From an uncultured Planctomycetaceae bacterium (GTDB taxonomy: Bacteria > Planctomycetota > Planctomycetia > Planctomycetales > Planctomycetaceae): DNA of 64,000 nt. Both the position numbers and the translations under genes were made by a program. This document shows, one piece after another, positions 7,469-62,412 of the stretch. Location: the NCBI GenBank assembly GCA_963813715.1, contig CAWFAK010000009.1:384001-448000 (forward strand). The letters run 5' to 3'. Position 1 is the stretch's first letter. Every line of letters begins with the position of its first letter. The notes below the pieces were generated by a model. That model saw only the letters and a program-made list of their open reading frames with translations, did no database searches and had not been told where the DNA came from.

Positions 7469-7855
7469 ATGAACTGGTTTCGACACGCCTTTGCGCTCGA
7501 TCCCCCTGGCCCCCTCGAACCGACCGTCGAGGAACGGGAGGTGGTCGAGCGGCTTTGTCGAATTCTGGCTCGGCGGCGGATGCAGACCCCCGCGATCACT
7601 TTTTTGGAAATGTCGCGACCGCTCAACCGGGTTGCGGCGCAGGTCCTGTATTTCTTTCACCCCGTCGCCTCGCTTGCGCTGACAGGTGACGACTACAACC
7701 GGTTCGCGCAATTCCTCGAAAAGTCCGGCTCGATCGACTATTTGTGCCGGCGACTCGAGGACCTGTCCGCGAAGGCCGACGCTCGCACGACGACCTCTCT
7801 CCCCGAGCCGTCGCCCGTCGAGGACAATTCGGCCGCCGCTCCGCCGCGCGAATGA
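7469..7855 (+). CDS. Small hypothetical protein, first gene of the GlmL-like operon
   Basis: 128-aa ORF (RRRMQTPAITFLEMSRPLN) ending 10 nt before the GlmL-like start. Confidence 0.7.
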   Translation: MNWFRHAFALDPPGPLEPTVEEREVVERLCRILARRRMQTPAITFLEMSRPLNRVAAQVLYFFHPVASLALTGDDYNRFAQFLEKSGSIDYLCRRLEDLSAKADARTTTSLPEPSPVEDNSAAAPPRE

Positions 7856-7864
7856 CGCAAGCCG

Positions 7865-9668
7865 ATGGATCTCGACAAAATCAACGTCATCTTCGCGACC
7901 GACTGCGGTAGCACCACCACCAAAGCCATCCTCATCGAGAAGGTGGGCGACGGCTACCGCCAAACGTACCGCGGCGAAGCCCCCACCACCGTCGAGGAGC
8001 CGGTCGCCGACGTGACTGTCGGCGTGATCAATGCGGCGACCGAGGTGGGCGAGCTGGCCGGCCGGCGGCTGGTGAACGAGCAGGGAGAGTTGATCCGTCC
8101 GGCCCGCGGCAACGAGGGCTGCGACATCTACATCTCGACATCGAGCGCCGGCGGCGGCCTGCAGATGATGGTCGCCGGCATCGTTCGCGAAATGACCGCG
8201 GCCAGCGCCAAGCGGGCCGCGCTCGGGGCCGGGGCCATCGTCATGGACGTGATCGCCGCCAACGACAAGCGGCTCCCCCACGAGCAAATTCAGCGCATCC
8301 GCGAGCTGCGGCCCGACATGATTCTGCTCTCGGGCGGCACCGACGGTGGCAACACGGCCAAAGTGGTCGAAATCGCCGAACGGATTGCCCCGGCCCGACC
8401 GCGGCCGCGGTTCGGCACGAATTACCAGATGCCGTTGATCTACGCCGGCAATCAGGACGCGAGCGAACTCGTCCGCGACGCGCTGGGCGATAGCGTCGAG
8501 CTCTTCGTAGTCCCCAACCTGCGACCAGTGCTCGAGCGCGAAAACCTGGGGCCCGCGCGCGACCGCATTCACGATATCTTTCTCGAACACGTGATGGCCC
8601 ACGCCCCCGGCTACGACAAGCTGATTCGCTGGGCGGACGCACCCATCATGCCGACGCCCGGCGCCGTGGGCGACATTCTGCAGATGATCGCCAAGAAGGA
8701 AGGGATCAACGCGGTCGGCGTCGACATCGGCGGGGCGACCACCGACGTCTTCAGCGTCTTCTCCGGGCACGTTCAACCGCACCGTGAGCGCCAACCTGGG
8801 GATGAGCTATTCGATCTCCAACGTCTGCGCCGAAACCGGGATGGCCAACATTCTGCGGTGGGTGCACGTCGACATGAACGAGCGCACGCTCCGCAACCGG
8901 GTCAAGAACAAGATGATCCGGCCGACCACCATTCCGCAGACGCTCGAGGCGCTTATCTTCGAGCAGGCAGTCTCACGCGAGGCGCTGCGGCTGGCGTACG
9001 CACAGCACAAGGAATTCGCGACGACGCTCAAGGGCGTGCAGCAGCAGCGGACGGTCGGCGATCTGTTCAGCCAGGGGGGAGCCGGGCAGTCGATCGTCGA
9101 CAACATGGCGCTCGACCTGTTGGTGGCCTCTGGCGGCGTTCTCTCCCACGCCCCACGGATGGAACAAACGGCCGCCATGTTGATCGACGCCTTCGAACCG
9201 GAAGGCATCACCACGCTCGCCAAGGACAGCATCTTCATGATGCCCCACCTGGGAGTGCTCGCGCAGGTTCATCCGCAGGCCGCGCTCGAGGTCTTCGAGC
9301 GCGATTGCCTGGTTTACTTGGGAACGTGCGTCGCTCCGAAGGGGAACGCCTCGCCCGAAAAGAAGTGCTTCGACTATCGGCTGACCGGCCCCGGACTGAA
9401 CGAAAAAGGCGAGATCCGCGTGGGCGAAATGCGGAAGATTCCCCTGGAAGCGGGAAAGCAGGCGACGATCGTCGTCGAACCGGCCCGCGGCTTCGATTGC
9501 GGAGCCGGGCCGGGCAAGCCGGTCGAACGAGAAATTCGCGGCGGTACCGTCGGCGTCATTCTCGATGGCCGCGGTCGCCCGCTCAAATTGCCGGAACAGG
9601 AATCCGAACGACGGCAACTGCTCGGCCAATGGGTCCGAGCCCTCGATCTGTATCCCCGAGGCAGTTGA
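7865..9668 (+). CDS. Glutamate mutase L (GlmL/MutL)-family ASKHA ATPase; 1-nt insertion in GGG at 8765-8767
   Basis: Phosphate-1 motif ATDCGSTTTKA, SSAGGGL, LLSGGTDGG, MPTPGAV, phosphate-2 motif VDIGGATTDVFS. Continues in ORF 8784..9668 (RTVSANLGMSYS, VASGGVLSH, ILDGRGRP). About 600 aa when joined. Confidence 0.85.
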
Positions 9669-9683
9669 AGAAGCCTTCCACGC

Positions 9684-10808
9684 ATGGCTACGTATACGCC
9701 CGGTCTCAAAGTCGTCGGCCAGATTCGGCACAGGGTCCGCCGCATCCTGCCGATTGCCGGCAACGTGCTCGTGAAGGAGGGTGACCACGTCAATGCCGAG
9801 CAGGTCGTGGCCGAAACGTTCATGCCGGGGGACGTGACGCCGATCAATCTGTCGAACGTCCTCTCGATCACGGCCAGTGAAGTGAAAGGCAGCCTGCTCA
9901 AGGCGGAAGGTGAGCGGGTCGAGCCGGGCGAGGTTCTGGCACGCACCAATGGCATCTTCGGCCTCTTCAAAAACGAATACCGGACCAAGGTGGGAGGGAC
10001 GATCGAATCGGCCTCGGCCGTCACGGGGCAGGTGATCCTTCGCGGCAAGCCGATTCCCGTGCAGGTTCGCGCCTATCTGAGCGGGACCGTCGTCGAGGTC
10101 TTGCCCAACGAAGGTGTCGTCGTTGAGGCAGACGTTTCGCTGATCCAGGGGATTTTTGGCGTCGGGGGCGAAGCCTTCGGACCGCTCGCGCTGTCCTGCC
10201 GCGAGCCGAGCGAACGGCTCGATGCCGGGCAAATCACCGCCGAACACAAAGGCAAGATCGTCATTGGCGGCGGACGGATGACAGGCGCCGCCGTCCGTCA
10301 GGCCGTGAAAGTCGGTGCCGCAGCGCTCGTTTCCGGCGGCATCGACGACCAGGATCTCAAGGAGATTCTGGGCTACGACCTGGGCGTGGCCGTCACTGGC
10401 TCCGAGAAGATCGGCCTGACCCTGATCGTGACCGAAGGCTTTGGCGAGATCGCAATGGCCGAGCGGACGTTTCGCCTGCTGGCCTCGCGGAACGGTGCGC
10501 CGGCGGCCGTCAGCGGAGCCACGCAAATTCGCGCGGGCGTGCTGCGACCGGAAATCGCCATTCCGATTCAAAATGCAGGGGCGGCTGCGGTGCGCGACGA
10601 GGCGGCACTCGACTCGACGCTGCGGGTCGGGGCCAACGTGCGAATCATCCGCGATCCGCATTTCGGCGTGATCGGCAAGGTCGCCGCATTGCCTCACGAG
10701 CTGACGACGCTCGAGTCGGGATCCAAGGCGCGCGTGCTGGAAGTGGCCGTCGACGGGGCACAGCGGATCATCGTGCCACGTGCCAACGTAGAGCTGATTG
10801 AAACCTGA
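9684..10808 (+). CDS. Conserved hypothetical protein with barrel-sandwich-hybrid-like N-terminus and KOW/SH3-like C-terminus
   Basis: Half-lipoyl-like repeats GNVLVKEGDHV and LLKAEGERVEPGEVLA; C-terminal LRVGANVRIIRDPHFGVIGKV..VPRANVE; no TM segment seen. Confidence 0.75.
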   Translation: MATYTPGLKVVGQIRHRVRRILPIAGNVLVKEGDHVNAEQVVAETFMPGDVTPINLSNVLSITASEVKGSLLKAEGERVEPGEVLARTNGIFGLFKNEYRTKVGGTIESASAVTGQVILRGKPIPVQVRAYLSGTVVEVLPNEGVVVEADVSLIQGIFGVGGEAFGPLALSCREPSERLDAGQITAEHKGKIVIGGGRMTGAAVRQAVKVGAAALVSGGIDDQDLKEILGYDLGVAVTGSEKIGLTLIVTEGFGEIAMAERTFRLLASRNGAPAAVSGATQIRAGVLRPEIAIPIQNAGAAAVRDEAALDSTLRVGANVRIIRDPHFGVIGKVAALPHELTTLESGSKARVLEVAVDGAQRIIVPRANVELIET

Positions 10809-10856
10809 CTGATCGAGATCTGACTGACCGAGATCTGACGGGGCGAGAACCACGAT

Positions 10857-12161
10857 ATGAAAGCGAAAATCCCGCTCGCCTGCCGCGTCGGCTCACCTCG
10901 ATCCAGCTTGGCGCGGTATGCCGCGGGTGTCTTCGCGGTTGTCGTTCTCTTGGCGAACAGCCGTCGCAGCGCCTCAGCCGCTGTTCCGCCCGCGGCGCCG
11001 CGTCCACCCGCCGACATCAAGGCTGCCGACCATCCCTGGGACGACGGCACGAAGATCGACGTGACGTTTGCCCTGTCACCGGACGACCGCCCGGATGCGA
11101 AGCCCAAGATCGTCGCGTTTTACACAGTCGAGCGGTCTGGCGAGCGCGACGGCGCCTTCGAGCCGGTCGGCGCACCGCTCATCCCCGGTCAAGCCGCCTA
11201 TAAGACCGGCACCATGACCACCACCGTCGACAAGTGCCACCGCGGCGAGCCGTATTTCTTTCGCGTCCGAGCGGTCACCGCCGACGGCCGCAAATCCGCG
11301 CCCGTCGAAACGAGCGAGCCGGTCTACGGCGTCCGCCAATGGTTCGACGGCGATCATTTGTGGCTGGCAATAATCATGGCCATTGTCTGCGGCACGATCG
11401 TCGCGTGCATCGAGCTGGCGCGGCGGGGTTGGCCGGTCAAAATCCGTCGCATCGCCGGGCTCGACGCGGTCGAAGAAGCCGTGGGCCGCGCCACCGAGAT
11501 GGGTCGCACCTGCTTTTTCATCGCGGGCGTTCAGGACCTGAATGAAATGCAGACGGTGGCGGGAATCACCGTGCTGTCGCACGTCGCGAAGGTCGCCGCC
11601 GAATACGATGCTCGCCTCGAGATGCCCACGGCCCGTTCGCTGGTGATGACGACGGCCCGCGAGACGGTGCAGGCTTCGTACCTGGCGGCCGGCCGGCCCG
11701 AATCGTACGTCGAGGACAACATCTATTACGTCACCGACGAGCAGTTCGGCTTCGCCGCATTCGCGACAGGGAAAATGGTTCGCGAGAAACCGGCAGCCTG
11801 CTTTTACATGGGCTGCTTTTTCGCTGAATCATTGATGCTTGCCGAGACGGCCAACACGGTCGGGGCGATTCAAATCGCCGGCACGGCCGAGCCGGCGCAG
11901 CTCCCGTTCTTCGTTGCGGCCTGCGACTACACGCTGATCGGCGAGGAGTTTTATGCCGCGTCGGCGTACCTCTCGGGGGATCCCGATCAACTCGGCAGCC
12001 TCAAAGGCCAGGACTTCGGTAAGTTGTTCGTCACCTGTTTACTCGTGATTGGCTCGCTGCTCGCCACCGGAGTCGTACTGGCCGGTCGAGTGAATCTGCC
12101 GGCAGCCCGGTCGGCACTCTCCCAGGCGACGACCTACTTAACCGACACGATTTTGAAATAA
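10857..12161 (+). CDS. Membrane protein with fibronectin-III-like exported domain and DUF6754-like C-terminal domain
   Basis: Signal-like N-terminus; FN3-like YFFRVRAVTADGRKS; TM; IRRIAGLDAVEEAVGRATEMGR, IQIAGT..QLPFF, LIGEEFYAASAYL; C-terminal TM. Domain name is from memory. Confidence 0.75.
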   Translation: MKAKIPLACRVGSPRSSLARYAAGVFAVVVLLANSRRSASAAVPPAAPRPPADIKAADHPWDDGTKIDVTFALSPDDRPDAKPKIVAFYTVERSGERDGAFEPVGAPLIPGQAAYKTGTMTTTVDKCHRGEPYFFRVRAVTADGRKSAPVETSEPVYGVRQWFDGDHLWLAIIMAIVCGTIVACIELARRGWPVKIRRIAGLDAVEEAVGRATEMGRTCFFIAGVQDLNEMQTVAGITVLSHVAKVAAEYDARLEMPTARSLVMTTARETVQASYLAAGRPESYVEDNIYYVTDEQFGFAAFATGKMVREKPAACFYMGCFFAESLMLAETANTVGAIQIAGTAEPAQLPFFVAACDYTLIGEEFYAASAYLSGDPDQLGSLKGQDFGKLFVTCLLVIGSLLATGVVLAGRVNLPAARSALSQATTYLTDTILK

Positions 12162-12174
12162 GAGAGCGACCCGA

Positions 12175-14032
12175 ATGAAGCGGATGATTCCCTTACTGAT
12201 CGCGGCGATGGCCGGCTACGTGCTTGTCGCCTCGCGCTTCATTCCGCTCGCCGAAAAATGGGGCGAAGTCGAGGCGATCTGGTTCGACGTCCTGGCGGCC
12301 ATTGCCTTCGTGCTCGGCGGCGGGAGCCTGCTCAAGCTGCATCTGCGTCGCATCAGCGACCGCGCGACGGGCTGGGGCTATTCGGCCATAACGCTGGCCG
12401 CCTTCCTCGCCACCTTGTACGTGGGCGTTGCGAAGACGGGGGCCCGCCCCTCGCAGGAGCAGGAATTCTACGGCGAATCGTTTGCCGTCCTGAAATTGGA
12501 GGATCTCCCCGAAAGCCTGACCTATCGAGTGACCGGGAGAATCCCCGAGCGGGCGGACGACGAACCGTTGCCGCTTTCCGTGCAGCGGCAGCTCAGCCAA
12601 TCGGGCGGTGACCTCGTGTTTCACGGTTGGATTTCGGGGCAACAACAAGGCGAACTCTTGAGATTCAAGGAAGACCTGGCCTGGCAATGCGCCGTTGAAA
12701 AACTCTTTGCGACGGCTCAACCCCCCGCCGCGTTCAAGGGCAAGGTGACGTATCTCGCCGACTACTCCCAGCTCAGCTTTCGGGGATTCATGACCGACGC
12801 CGACCATGAGACGTTGCTCAAGCTCGGCATGAATGAGGCGTACGTGGCCGCCGTCGAAGCGCTGTGGAAGGCGAGCCGGGCCGAGTCGGAAGTCTCCGTC
12901 GAGTGGCTGCCTCCCGGCTTCAGCATCCCTGCCGCCCAGCGAGCGTATCTCTCGTACGACGAAGGCAAACACAAGCTGCGGATTCGCGGGCCGATGTCGG
13001 TCGCTCTTCGCGATGAGCTGGCCCGCGACCATTTCCCGCTCGTGCGTCCAACCACGGCGGAACAGCGGGCCGCCTTCCTCAACGAACTCGAATCCCACGG
13101 CGGAAAGCTGAGCGAAGTACAAGCTCGTGCCCTCGACGCGGTGCTCGCCAACGGCTGGCCGGTCGACGGCCTGCGACTCGTTTTGGACGAAGCGGGCCAT
13201 GCGCTCCCCGCAGAAAAGTCAGCCTGTGACCTCTACCAGGAGCAGCAGGCCGCCAAGGGAGTGGCTGCAGCCACTCCCAAACCGACGCCGCCGAAAGCGG
13301 AACCCGACGTGAAATTAAACGACCGCCAAAAGGCTGCGATCGATGAATTCGTCCGTGAATCGACCGAGACCGTCGACGACTTGGCCGCGCCGCTTGATGG
13401 CGGCCGGTCCATTCACGGCGCGCCAGGAGGCCTCGCTTCGGGAGTTTTTCGCGAAGGTGCCGACCGTCGGCGACCAGAAGCTCGAGGCGTGCATCGCCAT
13501 TCTCCGCGTCGGTCCGCTCCCACGGGACCAGCGCAACTTTCTCCGGGACGATTACCGTCACCAGAACCAGTGGCGGCAGACCGTGGGCGACCTCTTCGTG
13601 CGGGCGCACAAAGTGAAATATCCCTGGTCGGGTCAGTACAACTCGCCCGGCTCCTGGTTCGGCTGGGCTTACGAATACATCTTCAAGCCGTGCACGGCGA
13701 CGATGTTCGCCCTCTTGGCCTTTTACGTCGCGTCCGCCGCCTTTCGTGCCTTCAGGGCCAAGAACTTCGAGGCCCTGCTGCTTTTGGGGACGGCCTTCAT
13801 CATCCTCTTGAGCCAAACGTTCGCCGGCTATTGGCTCACCTCGTGGCTCCCCTCCGACCCGCAGCAGAATGCACTCGCGTGGCTACGAATGGAGAACCTG
13901 AAGATCCTGATCATGCGAGTCTTTGCGACGGCGGGCACCCGCGCGATCATGATCGGCATCGCGCTGGGCCTCGCCTCGACGTCGATCAAGATCATGTTGG
14001 GGCAAGACCGCTCGTACGTGGGGAGGGACTGA
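12175..14032 (+). CDS. Polytopic membrane protein with large repeat-containing soluble insert; 1-nt insertion near 13390
   Basis: Three N-terminal TMs in ORF 12175..; the C-terminal TMs (ATMFALLAFYVASAAFRAFRAKN, RAIMIGIALG) lie in ORF 13343..14032, whose stop is 4 nt before the next ATG. Confidence 0.75.
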
Positions 14033-14035
14033 CCC

Positions 14036-14902
14036 ATGCGGTTCAACTGGGACAACATCGATCGCCGCTGGATCTTCCTGATGATGCTCATCACGGTCGC
14101 GGGACCGATCATTTGGCAGCTCGCCTTCCCGGAAATTCCGACCCCCTACGCCCGCGCGGTCTTCGACGCGATTGAAGATTTGAAGCCGGGCGACAAAGTG
14201 CTCGTCGCCTTCGATTATGACCCAGCCAGCGAAGCCGAGCTGGGCCCGATGGCCACCGACTTCGTGCACCACTGCTGCGAGAAGAAGGTGAAGATGTATT
14301 TCGTTTCTCTCTGGCCGGTCGGTCCCGTCATGGTCCAGGACGCCATTCGCAACATCATCGAGGCCGACTACCCCCAGATGGTGTACGGGCAGGACTATGT
14401 CAACCTGGGCTACAAGTCGGGCTACGAGGGCGTGATTAAGGTCATCGTGACGGACCTTCGCAGCCTCTACCCAACCGATACCCGCGGCAACAGCATCGAT
14501 CAGCTTCCGATGTGCCGCGACGTCAAGAACATTCAGAGCATGAAGCTCATCGTCGACGTCAGTGCCGGCTACGCAGGGGCGAAAGAATGGGTCCAATACG
14601 CGGCCGTTCCTTACGCCGACAAGATGAAGCTTGTCAGCGGTTCGACCGGCGTGCAGTCGCCGCAGCTCTTCCCGTATCTTCCGGACCAGATGGCCGGGCT
14701 GTTGGGGGGAATCAAAGGGGCAGCGGAGTACGAAATGCTGGTCAACGAGAGGTACAGTGGCCCGACACCCGCCCCGAAGTATCAGGAAGCCCTCCGCCGG
14801 ATGGGTCCGCAGCTTTTCGCCCACCTGTTGATGATCGGCCTGATCATCGCGGGCAACGTGATCTATTTCACCCAACGCCGCCGTGAGGGCCGCTCGCGAT
14901 GA
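14036..14902 (+). CDS. Conserved hypothetical membrane protein (N- and C-terminal TM, alpha/beta core)
   Basis: DRRWIFLMM TM; VLVAFDYDPASEAEL; DYVNLGY; GLLGGIKGAAEYE; C-terminal TM. Confidence 0.8.
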   Translation: MRFNWDNIDRRWIFLMMLITVAGPIIWQLAFPEIPTPYARAVFDAIEDLKPGDKVLVAFDYDPASEAELGPMATDFVHHCCEKKVKMYFVSLWPVGPVMVQDAIRNIIEADYPQMVYGQDYVNLGYKSGYEGVIKVIVTDLRSLYPTDTRGNSIDQLPMCRDVKNIQSMKLIVDVSAGYAGAKEWVQYAAVPYADKMKLVSGSTGVQSPQLFPYLPDQMAGLLGGIKGAAEYEMLVNERYSGPTPAPKYQEALRRMGPQLFAHLLMIGLIIAGNVIYFTQRRREGRSR

Positions 14903-15774
14903 AAAACGAGACCCGGATTTGGCTCGTGATTTTTGTGTTCTTCGCCGGCTTCCTGGCGTGGCGGGTGGGTGACGCCGGCGCCAGCCGGCAGTACGTGCGG
15001 GAACTCGATGGGCGCGTCGCTCCCGCGACCCTCGGCGACTTGGTTGCGGGAACGGCGCAGTTCAGCTTTTCGCGCACGGTCGGAGTCTGGGTTGCGGCCG
15101 CCCTGACGCTCGGCATCTTTTCGTTCCTCTATCGCGATAACGCGTTCTACAAGCTGGCAGAATCCGTGCTGGTCGGCGTGTCGGCCGCCTATTGGATGGT
15201 GGTGGCATATTGGGACGTTCTGATTCCCAACCTCTTTGGCAAGCTCTGGCCATCCTGGGTGCAATCTTGGGCCATTCCGGGTCTTTCGCCGCAGCACGAC
15301 GAGTTCTGGTACGCCTACTTCGTTCCGCTCGGGTTGGGAGTCATGCTCTTGTGGAGGCTCTCGCCCCGCGGCGGCTGGATCGGCGTATGGCCCCTGGCTT
15401 TTACGATCGGTGCCACCGCCGGATTGAGGTTGGTCGGCTATTTTCAGGCCGACTTCCTCGGCCAAATCCGCAACGGCATCGTGTCGCTGGCGATTTTCAA
15501 GGACTCTCATTTTGAGTGGGAACGCTCGATCGAAAATGTGGTGCTCGTCACCGGCACCCTGGCTTGCCTGTCCTACTTCTTCTTTTCCTTCGAGCACAAA
15601 GGCGCGCTCGGTCGCATCTCTCGGGTTGGCGTGTGGGTGCTGATGATCACCTTCGGCGCCGGCTTCGGGTACACGGTGATGGGACGCATCGCTTTGTTGG
15701 CCGGCCGACTCGAATTCCTGTTTGACGATTGGCTGTGGCTGATCGATCAGAACCATACGCGCATCTGGCAGTGA
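14899..15774 (+). CDS. Conserved hypothetical polytopic membrane protein
   Basis: About 7 hydrophobic segments; LTLGIFSFLYRDNAFYK, LMITFGAGFGYTVMGR; ATGA overlap with the previous gene. Confidence 0.8.
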   Translation: MKNETRIWLVIFVFFAGFLAWRVGDAGASRQYVRELDGRVAPATLGDLVAGTAQFSFSRTVGVWVAAALTLGIFSFLYRDNAFYKLAESVLVGVSAAYWMVVAYWDVLIPNLFGKLWPSWVQSWAIPGLSPQHDEFWYAYFVPLGLGVMLLWRLSPRGGWIGVWPLAFTIGATAGLRLVGYFQADFLGQIRNGIVSLAIFKDSHFEWERSIENVVLVTGTLACLSYFFFSFEHKGALGRISRVGVWVLMITFGAGFGYTVMGRIALLAGRLEFLFDDWLWLIDQNHTRIWQ

Positions 15775-15787
15775 CGGAGTCGAAGCT

Positions 15788-16870
15788 TTGCGGCGTTTCT
15801 TCGCATTGATTCTGGCAGCCGCGGTCCTCCACTCGGCCCAGCCGACGCGGATTCTTAGCGACGAACCGCCGGTCTACCGCGAGCACCAGGATCTGCGCTA
15901 TTACCTCGACGCCCGTGGGGATCGACATCCGATCCGAACGGTTGCCGACTGGGAGATCCGTCGCGCGCACATCCTGGCGCACCTGCAGGAAGTGATGGGG
16001 CCACTGCCGCACCCGTCGCACCCGGTGTCGCTCGACGTCCGGACGCTCGAGACGGTTTCGCTCGGCCCCATCGTCCGCCGTAAAATCGACTACCACACCG
16101 ATTCACCAAAACGCCGCGTGTCAGCCTACTTGTTTGTGCCGGCCAATAGCTCGGGCCGGCACCCGGCCGTGCTGTGCCTGCACCAAACCATCCACATCGG
16201 CAAAGAGGAGCCGGCGGGCCTGGGCTCGAATCGAGACCTCCAATACGCGCTCGAATTGGCGCAGCGAGGCTACGTGACGCTGGCTCCCGACTACCCGTCG
16301 TTCGGCGAATACAAATACGACTTTCCTCCGCAGGATGGATACGTCAGCGGCACGATGAAAGCGATTTACGACAACATTCGCGCGATCGACTTGTTGCAGT
16401 CGCTGCCGGACGTCGACCCGGAACGCGTCGGCTGCATCGGCCACTCGCTGGGCGGACACAATTCGATCTTTACGGCGACGTTCGATCCGCGGATCAAGGC
16501 CGTCGTTTCCAACTGCGGCTTCACGCGGTTCCACAAGTACTACGGCGGCAAACTCAAAGGCTGGGACAGCCCGCGCTATATGCCGCGGATCGCCAGCGTT
16601 TATGGCGACAATCCGGACCGAGTTCCGTTCGATTTTCCGGAAATCATCGCGGCGCTGGCTCCGCGGGCCTTTCTGGCGAGTTCCCCACTGCACGACGACA
16701 ACTTCGAAGTGTCGGGCGTCCGGGACGTGATCGCTGCTGCCCGGCCGATCTACGCGCTCTTCGGCGTGCCGGACAACCTGGCCGCCAATTACCCGGATGC
16801 CAAGCATTCATTCCCGCCAGCGGCGCGCGAGGTGGCTTACAAGTTCTTGGATCGCCACCTCAAGCGGTAA
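15788..16870 (+). CDS. Secreted alpha/beta hydrolase (dienelactone hydrolase/esterase-like)
   Basis: Signal peptide; PAVLCLH, nucleophile elbow GHSLGG, His motif KHSF; TTG start 14 nt after the previous stop. Confidence 0.85.
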   Translation: MRRFFALILAAAVLHSAQPTRILSDEPPVYREHQDLRYYLDARGDRHPIRTVADWEIRRAHILAHLQEVMGPLPHPSHPVSLDVRTLETVSLGPIVRRKIDYHTDSPKRRVSAYLFVPANSSGRHPAVLCLHQTIHIGKEEPAGLGSNRDLQYALELAQRGYVTLAPDYPSFGEYKYDFPPQDGYVSGTMKAIYDNIRAIDLLQSLPDVDPERVGCIGHSLGGHNSIFTATFDPRIKAVVSNCGFTRFHKYYGGKLKGWDSPRYMPRIASVYGDNPDRVPFDFPEIIAALAPRAFLASSPLHDDNFEVSGVRDVIAAARPIYALFGVPDNLAANYPDAKHSFPPAAREVAYKFLDRHLKR

Positions 16871-20157: not shown

Positions 20158-21141
20158 TCAGGTCTCGAAGCGATCACCGGACCGAACCGGGTTGCCGGTC
20201 AGGAATTCGGCAACCGTCATGGCCCGTTTTCCCTCCGGCTGCAGGCGGCGAATTTCAACCGCTCCGCCCGATGCCTGGACCACCATCCGCTGCTTGTCCG
20301 CGATCATAATGCTGCCCGGCGCGGCGGCCACGTCCGCGTGATCTTCGGCGGCCGCAACTTCGAGCACGATCAATCGCAGGGAGCGACCCGAACCGGAGCC
20401 AGCCCCGCCCTCCTTATCGCCCCCCATGACGAGGGTCGAGTAGGCCAGCGGCCAGGGCTGCAGGGCTCGCACCTGGCAGTCGATCTGCCGAGTGGAGCGG
20501 TTCCAATCGATCCGGCCGCTTTCCTTTTTGAGCCGGGGGCGCGGCTGGCTTGCGTCCCATCCTGCACGATGGGTTGGGCGGTCCCGTCGGCGAGTTGATC
20601 GACGACCTTCACGGCCAGCTCCGCGCCGAGACTTGCCAACCGCCCCTCCAGCTCGCCCGACGTCTCGCGCGGCCCGATGGGAGTCCGCTCGATTCCCAAG
20701 ATGGGGCCTGCGTCGAGCTTGGGCTCGATTTGGAAAATCGTCACGCCGGTCTCGGTTTCGCCCTGCAGGATGGCCGTCTGAATCGGGGCCGCGCCGCGGT
20801 ACCTGGGCAGGATCGAAGCGTGCACGTTGATCGCCCCCAGCCGCGGCACCGCCAACAGCTCGGCCGACAGGATCTGCCCGTACGCGGCCACGACGCACAA
20901 ATCGGGCACGAGGGCCGCCAAGTCGGCCACGGCTTCGGTTGTATTCGCTTTTTCGGGCTGAAAGACCGGCAGGCCCCGCTCGAGTGCCAGCTCTTTGAGT
21001 GGATTGACGTGTCGATGATGACCGCGACCGGTGCGATCGGGCTGCGTGAACAAGCCGACGACTGTGTGCTTTCCCTCGAGCAGCGCGAAAAGTCGGCAGG
21101 GCGAAGCCGCCGGTTGCCATCATGACTAAGCGAAGAGCCAC
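20158..21141 (-). CDS. fmt: Methionyl-tRNA formyltransferase; two apparent indels (~21080, ~20540)
   Basis: LVMMATGGFALPT / FTQPDR..VVAAYGQIL..NVHASILPRYRGAAPIQ / PRLKKESGRIDW..LQPEGKRAM; downstream of def. Confidence 0.9.
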   Translation of the reverse strand: MALRLVMMATGGFALPTFRAARGKAHSRRLVHAARSHRSRSSSTRQSTQRAGTRAGPAGLSARKSEYNRSRGRLGGPRARFVRRGRVRADPVGRAVGGAAAGGDQRARFDPAQVPRRGPDSDGHPAGRNRDRRDDFPNRAQARRRPHLGNRADSHRAARDVGRAGGAVGKSRRGAGREGRRSTRRRDRPTHRAGWDASQPRPRLKKESGRIDWNRSTRQIDCQVRALQPWPLAYSTLVMGGDKEGGAGSGSGRSLRLIVLEVAAAEDHADVAAAPGSIMIADKQRMVVQASGGAVEIRRLQPEGKRAMTVAEFLTGNPVRSGDRFET

Positions 21142-21228
21142 GGCTTCACTCCGCGCCGAGTGCCGGCGCTCAGCGGGACGCTTTGTCGCCGCAGGATCGG
21201 ACATTGACTGTTCCGACCGCATCCTCAG

Positions 21229-61735: not shown

Positions 61736-61808
61736 GCTAGCGTAGCTCAATTGGTAGAGCCCCGGTTTTGTAAACCGGTGGTTGTGGGTTCAAGTCCCTC
61801 CGCTAGCT
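61736..61808 (+). tRNA. tRNA-Thr(TGT)
   Basis: GCTAGCG acceptor stem, anticodon arm CCGGT-TT TGT AA-ACCGG, GGTTCAAGTCC T-arm; no encoded CCA. Confidence 0.95.
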
Positions 61809-61946
61809 TCGGGACGATTCAGGCGATCTTCGCTCCAGCAGGCCCCCATTTAATTTGTGATCGTTCAGGTTTTGTGATCGTTCAGGGAGGCGCAACGCAA
61901 CGAACGGGCGATCGGTTCGCTGGAAGTTGGTCACATGCAGGTTACT

Positions 61947-62028
61947 GGGGGAATTCCCGAGCGGTCAAAGGGGCCAGACTGTAAATCTGGTGGCATAGCC
62001 TTCGAAGGTTCGAATCCTTCTTCCCCCA
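61947..62028 (+). tRNA. tRNA-Tyr(GTA)
   Basis: GGGGGAA/TTCCCCC acceptor stem, CCAGA-CT GTA AA-TCTGG, long variable arm. Confidence 0.95.
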
Positions 62029-62237
62029 CTGCGTGGCGGGTGAGCCGCGCGATCCAGCGAAGAAGTTGCCAAGAACCTGAGGGGGGCCGGCGCGGACAAG
62101 ACGACGTCGAACAGGGCGTAGGGAGACGTTGGCATGCCGAGTCGAGCCAAAGCCGGTTGTCAGAGTGTCATTCATCGTCAGGGTGTCATTCCGGGAAATG
62201 TCCTCGCGTGGAGTGTCGTTGACGGGGGGAGAACATC

Positions 62238-62308
<71 letters not shown>

Positions 62309-62336
62309 TTCCAGCGGAGGTGAAGACCGTTTGGTT

Positions 62337-62412
<76 letters not shown>

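Follow-up and report, generated by a model that had tools for sequence, protein, structure and literature searches.

A conserved seven-gene system built around a long GlmL/MutL-like ATPase in Planctomycetota points to an ATP-driven membrane machine

Eight co-oriented genes in the genome of an uncultured planctomycete (G000) encode a long ATPase of the GlmL/MutL family (PF13941) with a soluble partner, four membrane proteins and, at either end, a small protein and a hydrolase. They occupy positions 7469–16870 of the window, the 64,000-nt stretch of DNA that was analysed (contig C9:384001–448000 of a 7.5-Mb assembly that is 83% complete). The way in which these genes are kept, lost and swapped together across genomes points to an undescribed ATP-driven membrane machine, and genes 1–7 very probably form one system. 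Successive genes are separated by 9, 15, 48, 13, 3, −4 (an ATGA overlap) and 13 nt, in agreement with an earlier reading of the sequence alone (the sequence-only reading), which had described a tight operon with gaps under 50 nt and one ATGA overlap. The genes are:

Gene 1, 7469–7855, forward strand: small soluble protein, 128 aa, with no Pfam or NCBIfam family
Gene 2, 7865–9668, forward strand: long PF13941 (GlmL/MutL-like) ATPase of the ASKHA fold, ~597 aa, with a one-base assembly insertion at ~8763–8768
Gene 3, 9684–10808, forward strand: soluble partner, 374 aa, with barrel-sandwich hybrid domains, a central alpha/beta domain and a C-terminal KOW domain
Gene 4, 10857–12161, forward strand: 434 aa, with an N-terminal FN3 domain, a membrane helix, a Rossmann-like DUF6754 domain and a second membrane helix
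Gene 5, 12175–14032, forward strand: polytopic membrane protein, 618 aa when intact, with a one-base assembly insertion at ~13390–13391
Gene 6, 14036–14902, forward strand: 288 aa, with a membrane helix, a Rossmann-like domain (probably outside) and a second membrane helix
Gene 7, 14899–15774, forward strand: polytopic membrane protein, 291 aa
Gene 8, 15788–16870, forward strand: alpha/beta hydrolase (Pfam), a passenger

Pfam places MutL (PF13941) on both pieces of gene 2 (301 and 112 bits; gathering cut-off 27 bits) and DUF6754 on gene 4 (E = 2e-117), with weak Biotin_lipoyl and KOW matches on gene 3; genes 1, 5, 6 and 7 matched no Pfam or NCBIfam family. The breaks in genes 2 and 5, where the window assembly has one extra base each, are assembly errors, because both genes are unbroken (597 and 618 aa) in the closest relative, locus L024, whose DNA is 92% identical, and because both extra bases are missing from contigs of 4/4 soil or rhizosphere sequencing runs. 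The indels previously suspected in these reading frames are thus present in the assembly as errors. G000 as a whole is rich in single-base errors; eutB (G000:C17:491402–492686) and the gene for methylmalonyl-CoA mutase (C9:187331–188882) also lie in pieces in it.

Neighbourhoods were compared at the best 80 of 562 DUF6754 loci in GTDB genomes, with the loci that hold a gene or have room for it as denominators, a way of counting that leans upward. Gene 3 is present at 71/76 of these loci, gene 2 at 52/62 and gene 1 at 42/54, and the other membrane genes are present at 67/79 (gene 5), 59/71 (gene 6) and 55/66 (gene 7). The order 1–7 recurs in records from Planctomycetota, Marinimicrobia and Acidobacteriota. 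Conservation of the neighbourhood, a check proposed with the sequence-only reading, hence bears out the association of the membrane genes with this clade of ATPases. The hydrolase fared differently: it had been listed among the genes of the operon, but follows gene 7 at just 1 of 46 loci with room for it, that of the closest relative, and is therefore a passenger outside the conserved system. In distant planctomycetes, the order is at times permuted (1-4-5-6-7-2-3) or the 4–7 block stands in tandem duplicate (L104, L105, L117, L118 and L129), with a single ATPase gene beside four of the five duplicates. Marinimicrobia have genes 2 and 3 as a fusion, and 49/49 longer relatives of gene 3 are gene 2+3 fusions; genes 6 and 7 are naturally fused in three database proteins, and one read-through joins genes 4 and 5 on a single contig, where it may be an artefact. 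At 21/52 loci an extra upstream gene (for example L050:5463–5894) encodes ~144 aa with two hydrophobic segments and belongs to no family; the window is without it and has ilvN there, head to head with gene 1.

A survey of 301 genomes from the phylum detected DUF6754 in 80 and PF13941 in 81; 77 genomes hold both, 3 DUF6754 only, 4 PF13941 only and 217 neither. Gene 6 was found in exactly the same 80 genomes as DUF6754, and the three genomes with DUF6754 only are fragmented assemblies of 410–1140 contigs. Linkage does not explain this co-occurrence, because three genomes that each consist of a single contig (G042, G141 and G031) keep all of the pieces searched for (genes 2, 4 and 6), although the parts of the set lie 0.3–3.2 Mb from one another. 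Within the host's own family, 15/16 other sampled genomes have the set, G246 being the sole sampled member without the system. Across 58 loci, kin among which are not independent, the pairwise identities for gene 2 correlate with those for genes 3–7 (Spearman coefficients of 0.80–0.90). At L024, gene 2 is 72–75% identical to copies from Marinimicrobia and Acidobacteriota, compared with 56–63% to those of several other planctomycete families, and for gene 6 the corresponding ranges are 52–64% and 30–37%. Because all six large L024 proteins are closer to those two phyla than to several other planctomycete families, the comparison suggests that the system has been transferred between phyla as a unit. 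Its distribution in an Acidobacteriota-centred sample is patchy, with DUF6754 in 5/151 genomes.

The ATPase had been described as a protein of ~600 aa with the motifs DCGSTTTK and DIGGATTD. The length of the intact protein agrees, and each position of both motifs is conserved in 39/39 aligned relatives, except C14 (37/39). GGTDGG and an adenosine-type SGGVLSH motif are likewise conserved in these relatives, and the fuller forms of the first two motifs are TDxGSTTTKA and VDIGGATTD. With all three of the ASKHA motifs (phosphate-1, phosphate-2 and adenosine) present in the alignment, gene 2 is a member of this fold.

Gene 2 shares the PF13941 family and the ASKHA motifs with GlmL/MutL, which a figure legend calls a chaperone for mutase reactivation (PMC4682846). 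It differs in having ~120 additional C-terminal residues and a fixed partner, gene 3, and in travelling with membrane genes instead of mutase genes. Against the GlmL model NF040745, an intact relative of gene 2 (P0001) scored 234.9 bits where the cut-off is 475 and a glmE-adjacent control (L144) scored 502.9. Against NF040744 (Or-4), the score was 205 bits with a cut-off of 600, which an aminomutase-adjacent control (L145, 409 bits) also failed to reach; gene 2 falls under the cut-offs of all three NCBIfam models (these two and TIGR01319). It is 30% identical over 493 columns to the glmE-adjacent copy and at least 41% identical to every row of its own alignment. In a quick tree of 56 rows that carries long-branch warnings, 3 short mutase-adjacent copies branch apart from 53 long copies, 2 of the 5 short copies having been excluded by the coverage filter. 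Gene 3 was not found next to the short mutase-type PF13941 copies in L144–L149.

The genomes separate in the same way. We did not find glmE in G000 (83% complete) or in 75/76 other genomes carrying PF13941 and DUF6754; of the 80 further genomes with PF13941, 4 have glmE and 1 has PF09043. Only one of the four glmE genomes, G298, carries the membrane system. Of its three PF13941 genes, one adjoins glmE, another PF09043, and the third is a long copy accompanied by gene 3. In three of the four genomes with PF13941 only, the PF13941 gene adjoins glmE. Gene 2 is not a GlmL: its NF040745 score lies far below the cut-off, it occupies a separate branch and glmE is absent from 75/76 other carriers. The earlier proposal that this ATPase is not tied to a mutase is thereby upheld.

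Gene 3 had been read as a soluble barrel-sandwich/KOW-like protein, and its family of 67 members agrees with this description: at E ≤ 0.05, 50 match Biotin_lipoyl, 33 RnfC_N, 22 KOW and 12 the NqrA N-terminus. The protein has a central domain rich in glycine between the barrel-sandwich hybrid domains and a terminal KOW domain, its alignment has no conserved cysteines, and it has a weak RraA-fold match (E = 0.15). The second barrel-sandwich hairpin (residues ~70–96, window 9891–9971) is tipped by GIFGxF where lipoyl domains have a lipoyl/biotinyl lysine motif; the tip is possibly a membrane- or partner-binding finger.

The first of the membrane proteins, gene 4, has the FN3 and DUF6754-like domains previously assigned to it, the FN3 domain through profile matches to titin FN3 (E = 4e-18). 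In its model (predicted local distance difference test 95.5, predicted template modelling score 0.87), an alpha/beta domain of six strands sits between two membrane helices. Fold matches of the DUF6754 domain are to generic Rossmann-like domains with Z scores of 8.8–10.0, none clear of the rest: glycosyltransferases, sirtuins, dehydrogenases and RCK/KTN domains are tied. LpxB gives Z 10.0 (root mean square deviation (r.m.s.d.) 3.1, 130 residues aligned) and KtrC Z 9.3 (r.m.s.d. 3.1, 115 aligned); the RCK/KTN matches as a group (Z 8.8–9.3) are tied with unrelated Rossmann folds, and no RCK/KTN sequence match was found. Lysine and arginine counts of 4.5 after the first helix, compared with 1.8 before it, place the DUF6754 domain probably in the cytoplasm by the positive-inside rule. 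Two residues in a predicted membrane helix, D386 and K389, are conserved in 95/95 sequences, and the DUF6754 domain holds many invariant polar residues. Copies of gene 4 differ in their N-terminal part, which some lack and which in others is longer than 900 aa, and which includes FN3 or repeat domains and long coiled or repeat regions; copies in L112, L114, L115 and L131 are without this outside arm.

Gene 6 repeats the layout and element order of gene 4 in a weaker model (best fold match Z 8.6, r.m.s.d. 3.7, 159 aligned). This model is of a natural gene 6+7 fusion (P0007), in which gene 6 alignment rows are partly misaligned onto the gene 7 half and residues 200–295 are unreliable, and its fold search covered residues 34–206 only, so that the gene 7 fold was barely probed. 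The charge bias of gene 6 is the reverse of that of gene 4 (3.6 lysines and arginines before the first helix compared with 0.9 after), for which reason its alpha/beta domain probably lies outside. Conserved polar residues of gene 6 in a predicted membrane helix are Q259, H263 (123/124) and N274 (124/124), and its family counts 4494 representatives at 50% identity. Genes 4 and 6 were tried as ancient paralogues and did not pass: profile comparison gave 2–4% probability, over the membrane helices only, and domain-only scores fell within those of shuffled controls. The same order of helices and strands in both models leaves their paralogy as a lead.

Genes 5 and 7 each have about six segments that are hydrophobic or helical. 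Profile comparison gave no match for either, and no PDB sequence was matched convincingly by their profiles. Polar residues conserved in predicted membrane helices are T126, S137, R141, R144, E149 and R201 in gene 5 (L045 numbering) and N81, E88, T259, R263 and R270 in gene 7, the latter invariant in 62/62 sequences. Most relatives of gene 5 have ~230 aa; the 618 aa here are reached through a ~390-aa insert (~residues 87–480 of P0002), which has no Pfam match, shows a repeated motif by eye and occurs in a minority of loci (L025, L026, L031, L051, L078, L085, L097 and L135). Foldseek searches with the gene 4 model and the gene 6+7 model returned nothing at E ≤ 0.001, which is no proof of a new fold, and matches in Atlas searches were all to unnamed or DUF6754 clusters. 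That the operon has no recognisable permease, as had been stated, agrees with the Pfam, NCBIfam, PDB sequence and fold searches, in which no membrane subunit matched a characterised transporter.

In the machine that we propose, genes 2 and 3 would form a cytoplasmic ATPase unit of actin/Hsp70 (ASKHA) fold and genes 4–7 an inner-membrane unit. The earlier idea of an ATPase coupled to a membrane complex rather than to a mutase is supported by the co-occurrence and by the absence of glmE. We infer this coupling from genomics and the topology from positive-inside counts, and physical contact, ATP hydrolysis, transport and its direction likewise by inference; when gene 2 and the DUF6754 part of gene 4 were modelled as a complex, the median was 0.50, as it was for one unrelated control, a result that speaks neither for nor against contact. 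The most likely mechanism, to which we give a probability of roughly 0.4, is a primary active transporter outside the ABC (ATP-binding cassette), P-type and rotary classes. A path through the membrane, lined by the conserved polar residues, would be built from genes 5 and 7 together with the helices of genes 4 and 6; substrate capture would fall to the gene 6 domain on the outside and to the outside parts of genes 4 and 5, which vary; and the ATPase would clamp and release the cytoplasmic DUF6754 domain, switching the path between states, in a way similar to that in which its short relatives are proposed to force B12 enzymes open. A non-ABC transporter is favoured because of the conserved polar residues in the helices, the alpha/beta domains inside and outside, and the membrane modules duplicated beside one ATPase, a pattern seen in transporters with several permeases.

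Several observations weigh against this transporter or limit its support. The invariant polar residues of DUF6754 could equally mark an active site. A 99% complete genome, G200 of family f33, has genes 1–3 (L139, C11:266000–285999), and genes 4 and 6 were not found in it. Divergent gene 2+3 pairs stand with no membrane module nearby in L132, L133 and L150–L152 and, fused, in L140, L141, L153 and L154; they form their own branches in the tree, and their host genomes also carry the main system. Of 1277 longer forms of gene 4, the 120 listed include no fusion of the ATPase to a membrane protein, and neither do the 49 longer forms of gene 3. The co-occurrence counts include related genomes and are hence not independent samples. 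Flanking genes are mostly unrelated housekeeping genes that give no consistent clue to a substrate. In favour of transport, oligopeptide ABC ATPase or family-5 binding-protein genes lie within or after the module at L117:7739–9619, L118:14973–18781, L129:16555–18375 and L045:3867–4766. Plain peptide feeding is opposed by f33, in which 12 genomes carry the system and 4/4 tested have hydrazine-synthase-type genes; anammox bacteria of this type are autotrophs. Because such oligopeptide neighbours are few and the anammox-type family also carries the system, feeding is no likelier than a general role in the envelope or in homeostasis.

Other mechanisms would account for parts of the same evidence. 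Cycles of the ATPase might instead pull the outside arm of gene 4 on the wall or outer membrane, making an envelope motor analogous to Tol-Pal or TonB. The great range of gene 4 N-termini fits such an arm, as do two loci in which genes 2 and 3 are separated by a PD40 propeller gene (L106:757–1791 and L107:12384–13421), an OmpA-domain gene follows gene 7 (L106:9041–9802 and L107:3509–4285) and gene 4 has 1160–1220 aa. These neighbours are confined to one family, however, gene 4 has no arm in four loci, and no MotA/TolQ/ExbB or TonB Pfam match was found, so that we hold a motor of this kind to be unlikely, although it is the first alternative to consider. Slightly more doubtful is a membrane enzyme line, in which gene 2 would activate a small molecule with ATP and genes 4–7 would pass it to a lipid or export it for envelope modification. 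That gene 2 weakly matches Hydantoinase_A (E = 2e-4) and has hydantoinase and oxoprolinase as relatives would suit this chemistry, as would the invariant polar residues of DUF6754 and the GT-B N-terminal domains, LpxB among them, at the top of its fold list; yet the LpxB match is not clear of unrelated rows, and genes of a donor or acceptor pathway do not recur nearby.

Transmembrane signalling, with variable outside domains that sense, a cytoplasmic Rossmann-like domain that reports and an ATPase that resets, appears improbable. A conserved core with variable outside domains would be expected of it, and RCK/KTN regulatory domains such as that of KtrC are among the fold matches of DUF6754, but these matches are generic, being tied with glycosyltransferases, sirtuins and dehydrogenases, and regulators, kinases and cyclases do not recur among the neighbours. 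The most conservative possibility, that gene 2 is an ordinary reactivase whose B12 enzyme is encoded at another place in the genome and that the membrane genes next to it have nothing to do with it, draws on its PF13941 membership and on the eutB and methylmalonyl-CoA mutase genes that G000 holds elsewhere. It is largely refuted and very improbable given the sub-threshold GlmL score beside that of the glmE-adjacent control, the absence of glmE from 75/76 other carriers and of PF09043 from 79/80 genomes, and four complete carrier genomes that have neither eutB nor methylmalonyl-CoA mutase.

Compared with known systems, the transporter favoured here has partial likenesses. In the diol and glycerol dehydratase reactivases DdrA/GdrA, an ASKHA ATPase remodels a partner complex and includes a swivelling domain, and gene 3 has the weak RraA-fold match given above; however, neither profile matched a DdrA chain at E ≤ 1, and no B12 enzyme target co-occurs. 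The B12 dehydratase family PF02286 was not found in 5/5 genomes, a search whose control also gave no match. ABC and ECF (energy-coupling factor) importers likewise combine a cytoplasmic ATPase, several membrane subunits and outside domains, but genes 1–8 have no ABC_tran match, and permease and binding-protein families have no match among the subunits. The barrel-sandwich domains of gene 3 resemble the N-termini of RnfC (33/67) and NqrA (12/67), and Rnf and Nqr are also multi-subunit membrane operons; in contrast to these, the present system has no flavin or Fe–S families, its gene 3 has no conserved cysteine and its membrane subunits are unmatched. From Tol-Pal and TonB-ExbBD it differs in that neither genes 4–7 nor the members of the gene 5 and 6 alignments match MotA/TolQ/ExbB. 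PADLOC 2.0 anti-phage models matched 0/7 proteins at E ≤ 0.01.

The system itself appears to be new; the ATPase family is already known. In keeping with the sequence-only reading, which knew of no functional description, none was found in the open-licence PMC and bioRxiv literature, and that literature yielded no paper on DUF6754 or PF13941. Searchable text of an essentiality study of Planctopirus limnophila (PMC10632474) likewise gave no match. We know of no ASKHA-fold ATPase that powers a dedicated transporter or membrane motor. It is close to an even chance, if on the lower side of it, that the genes represent a new class in which an actin/Hsp70-fold ATPase from the B12-reactivase family drives a four-subunit complex of two opposite-facing halves, the Rossmann-like domain of gene 4 inside and that of gene 6 outside, and serves a core envelope need common to heterotrophic planctomycetes and anammox autotrophs. 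If true, thousands of genes named ‘glutamate mutase L’ would be misannotated. Genes 3 and 4 are carried by cultured strains (Thalassoglobus neptunius and Planctomicrobium sp. SH661 and SH664), which make the function testable.

Promoter and terminator scans of the operon gave chance-level results only, and no riboswitch was found in the window or upstream, 20/20 upstream regions being free of any Rfam element. Contigs from two RNA libraries span most of the operon, which is no demonstration of transcription. Elsewhere in the window, a formyltransferase-like gene (20158–21222) is apparently split across two frames, and four tRNA genes are clustered at 61736–62409.

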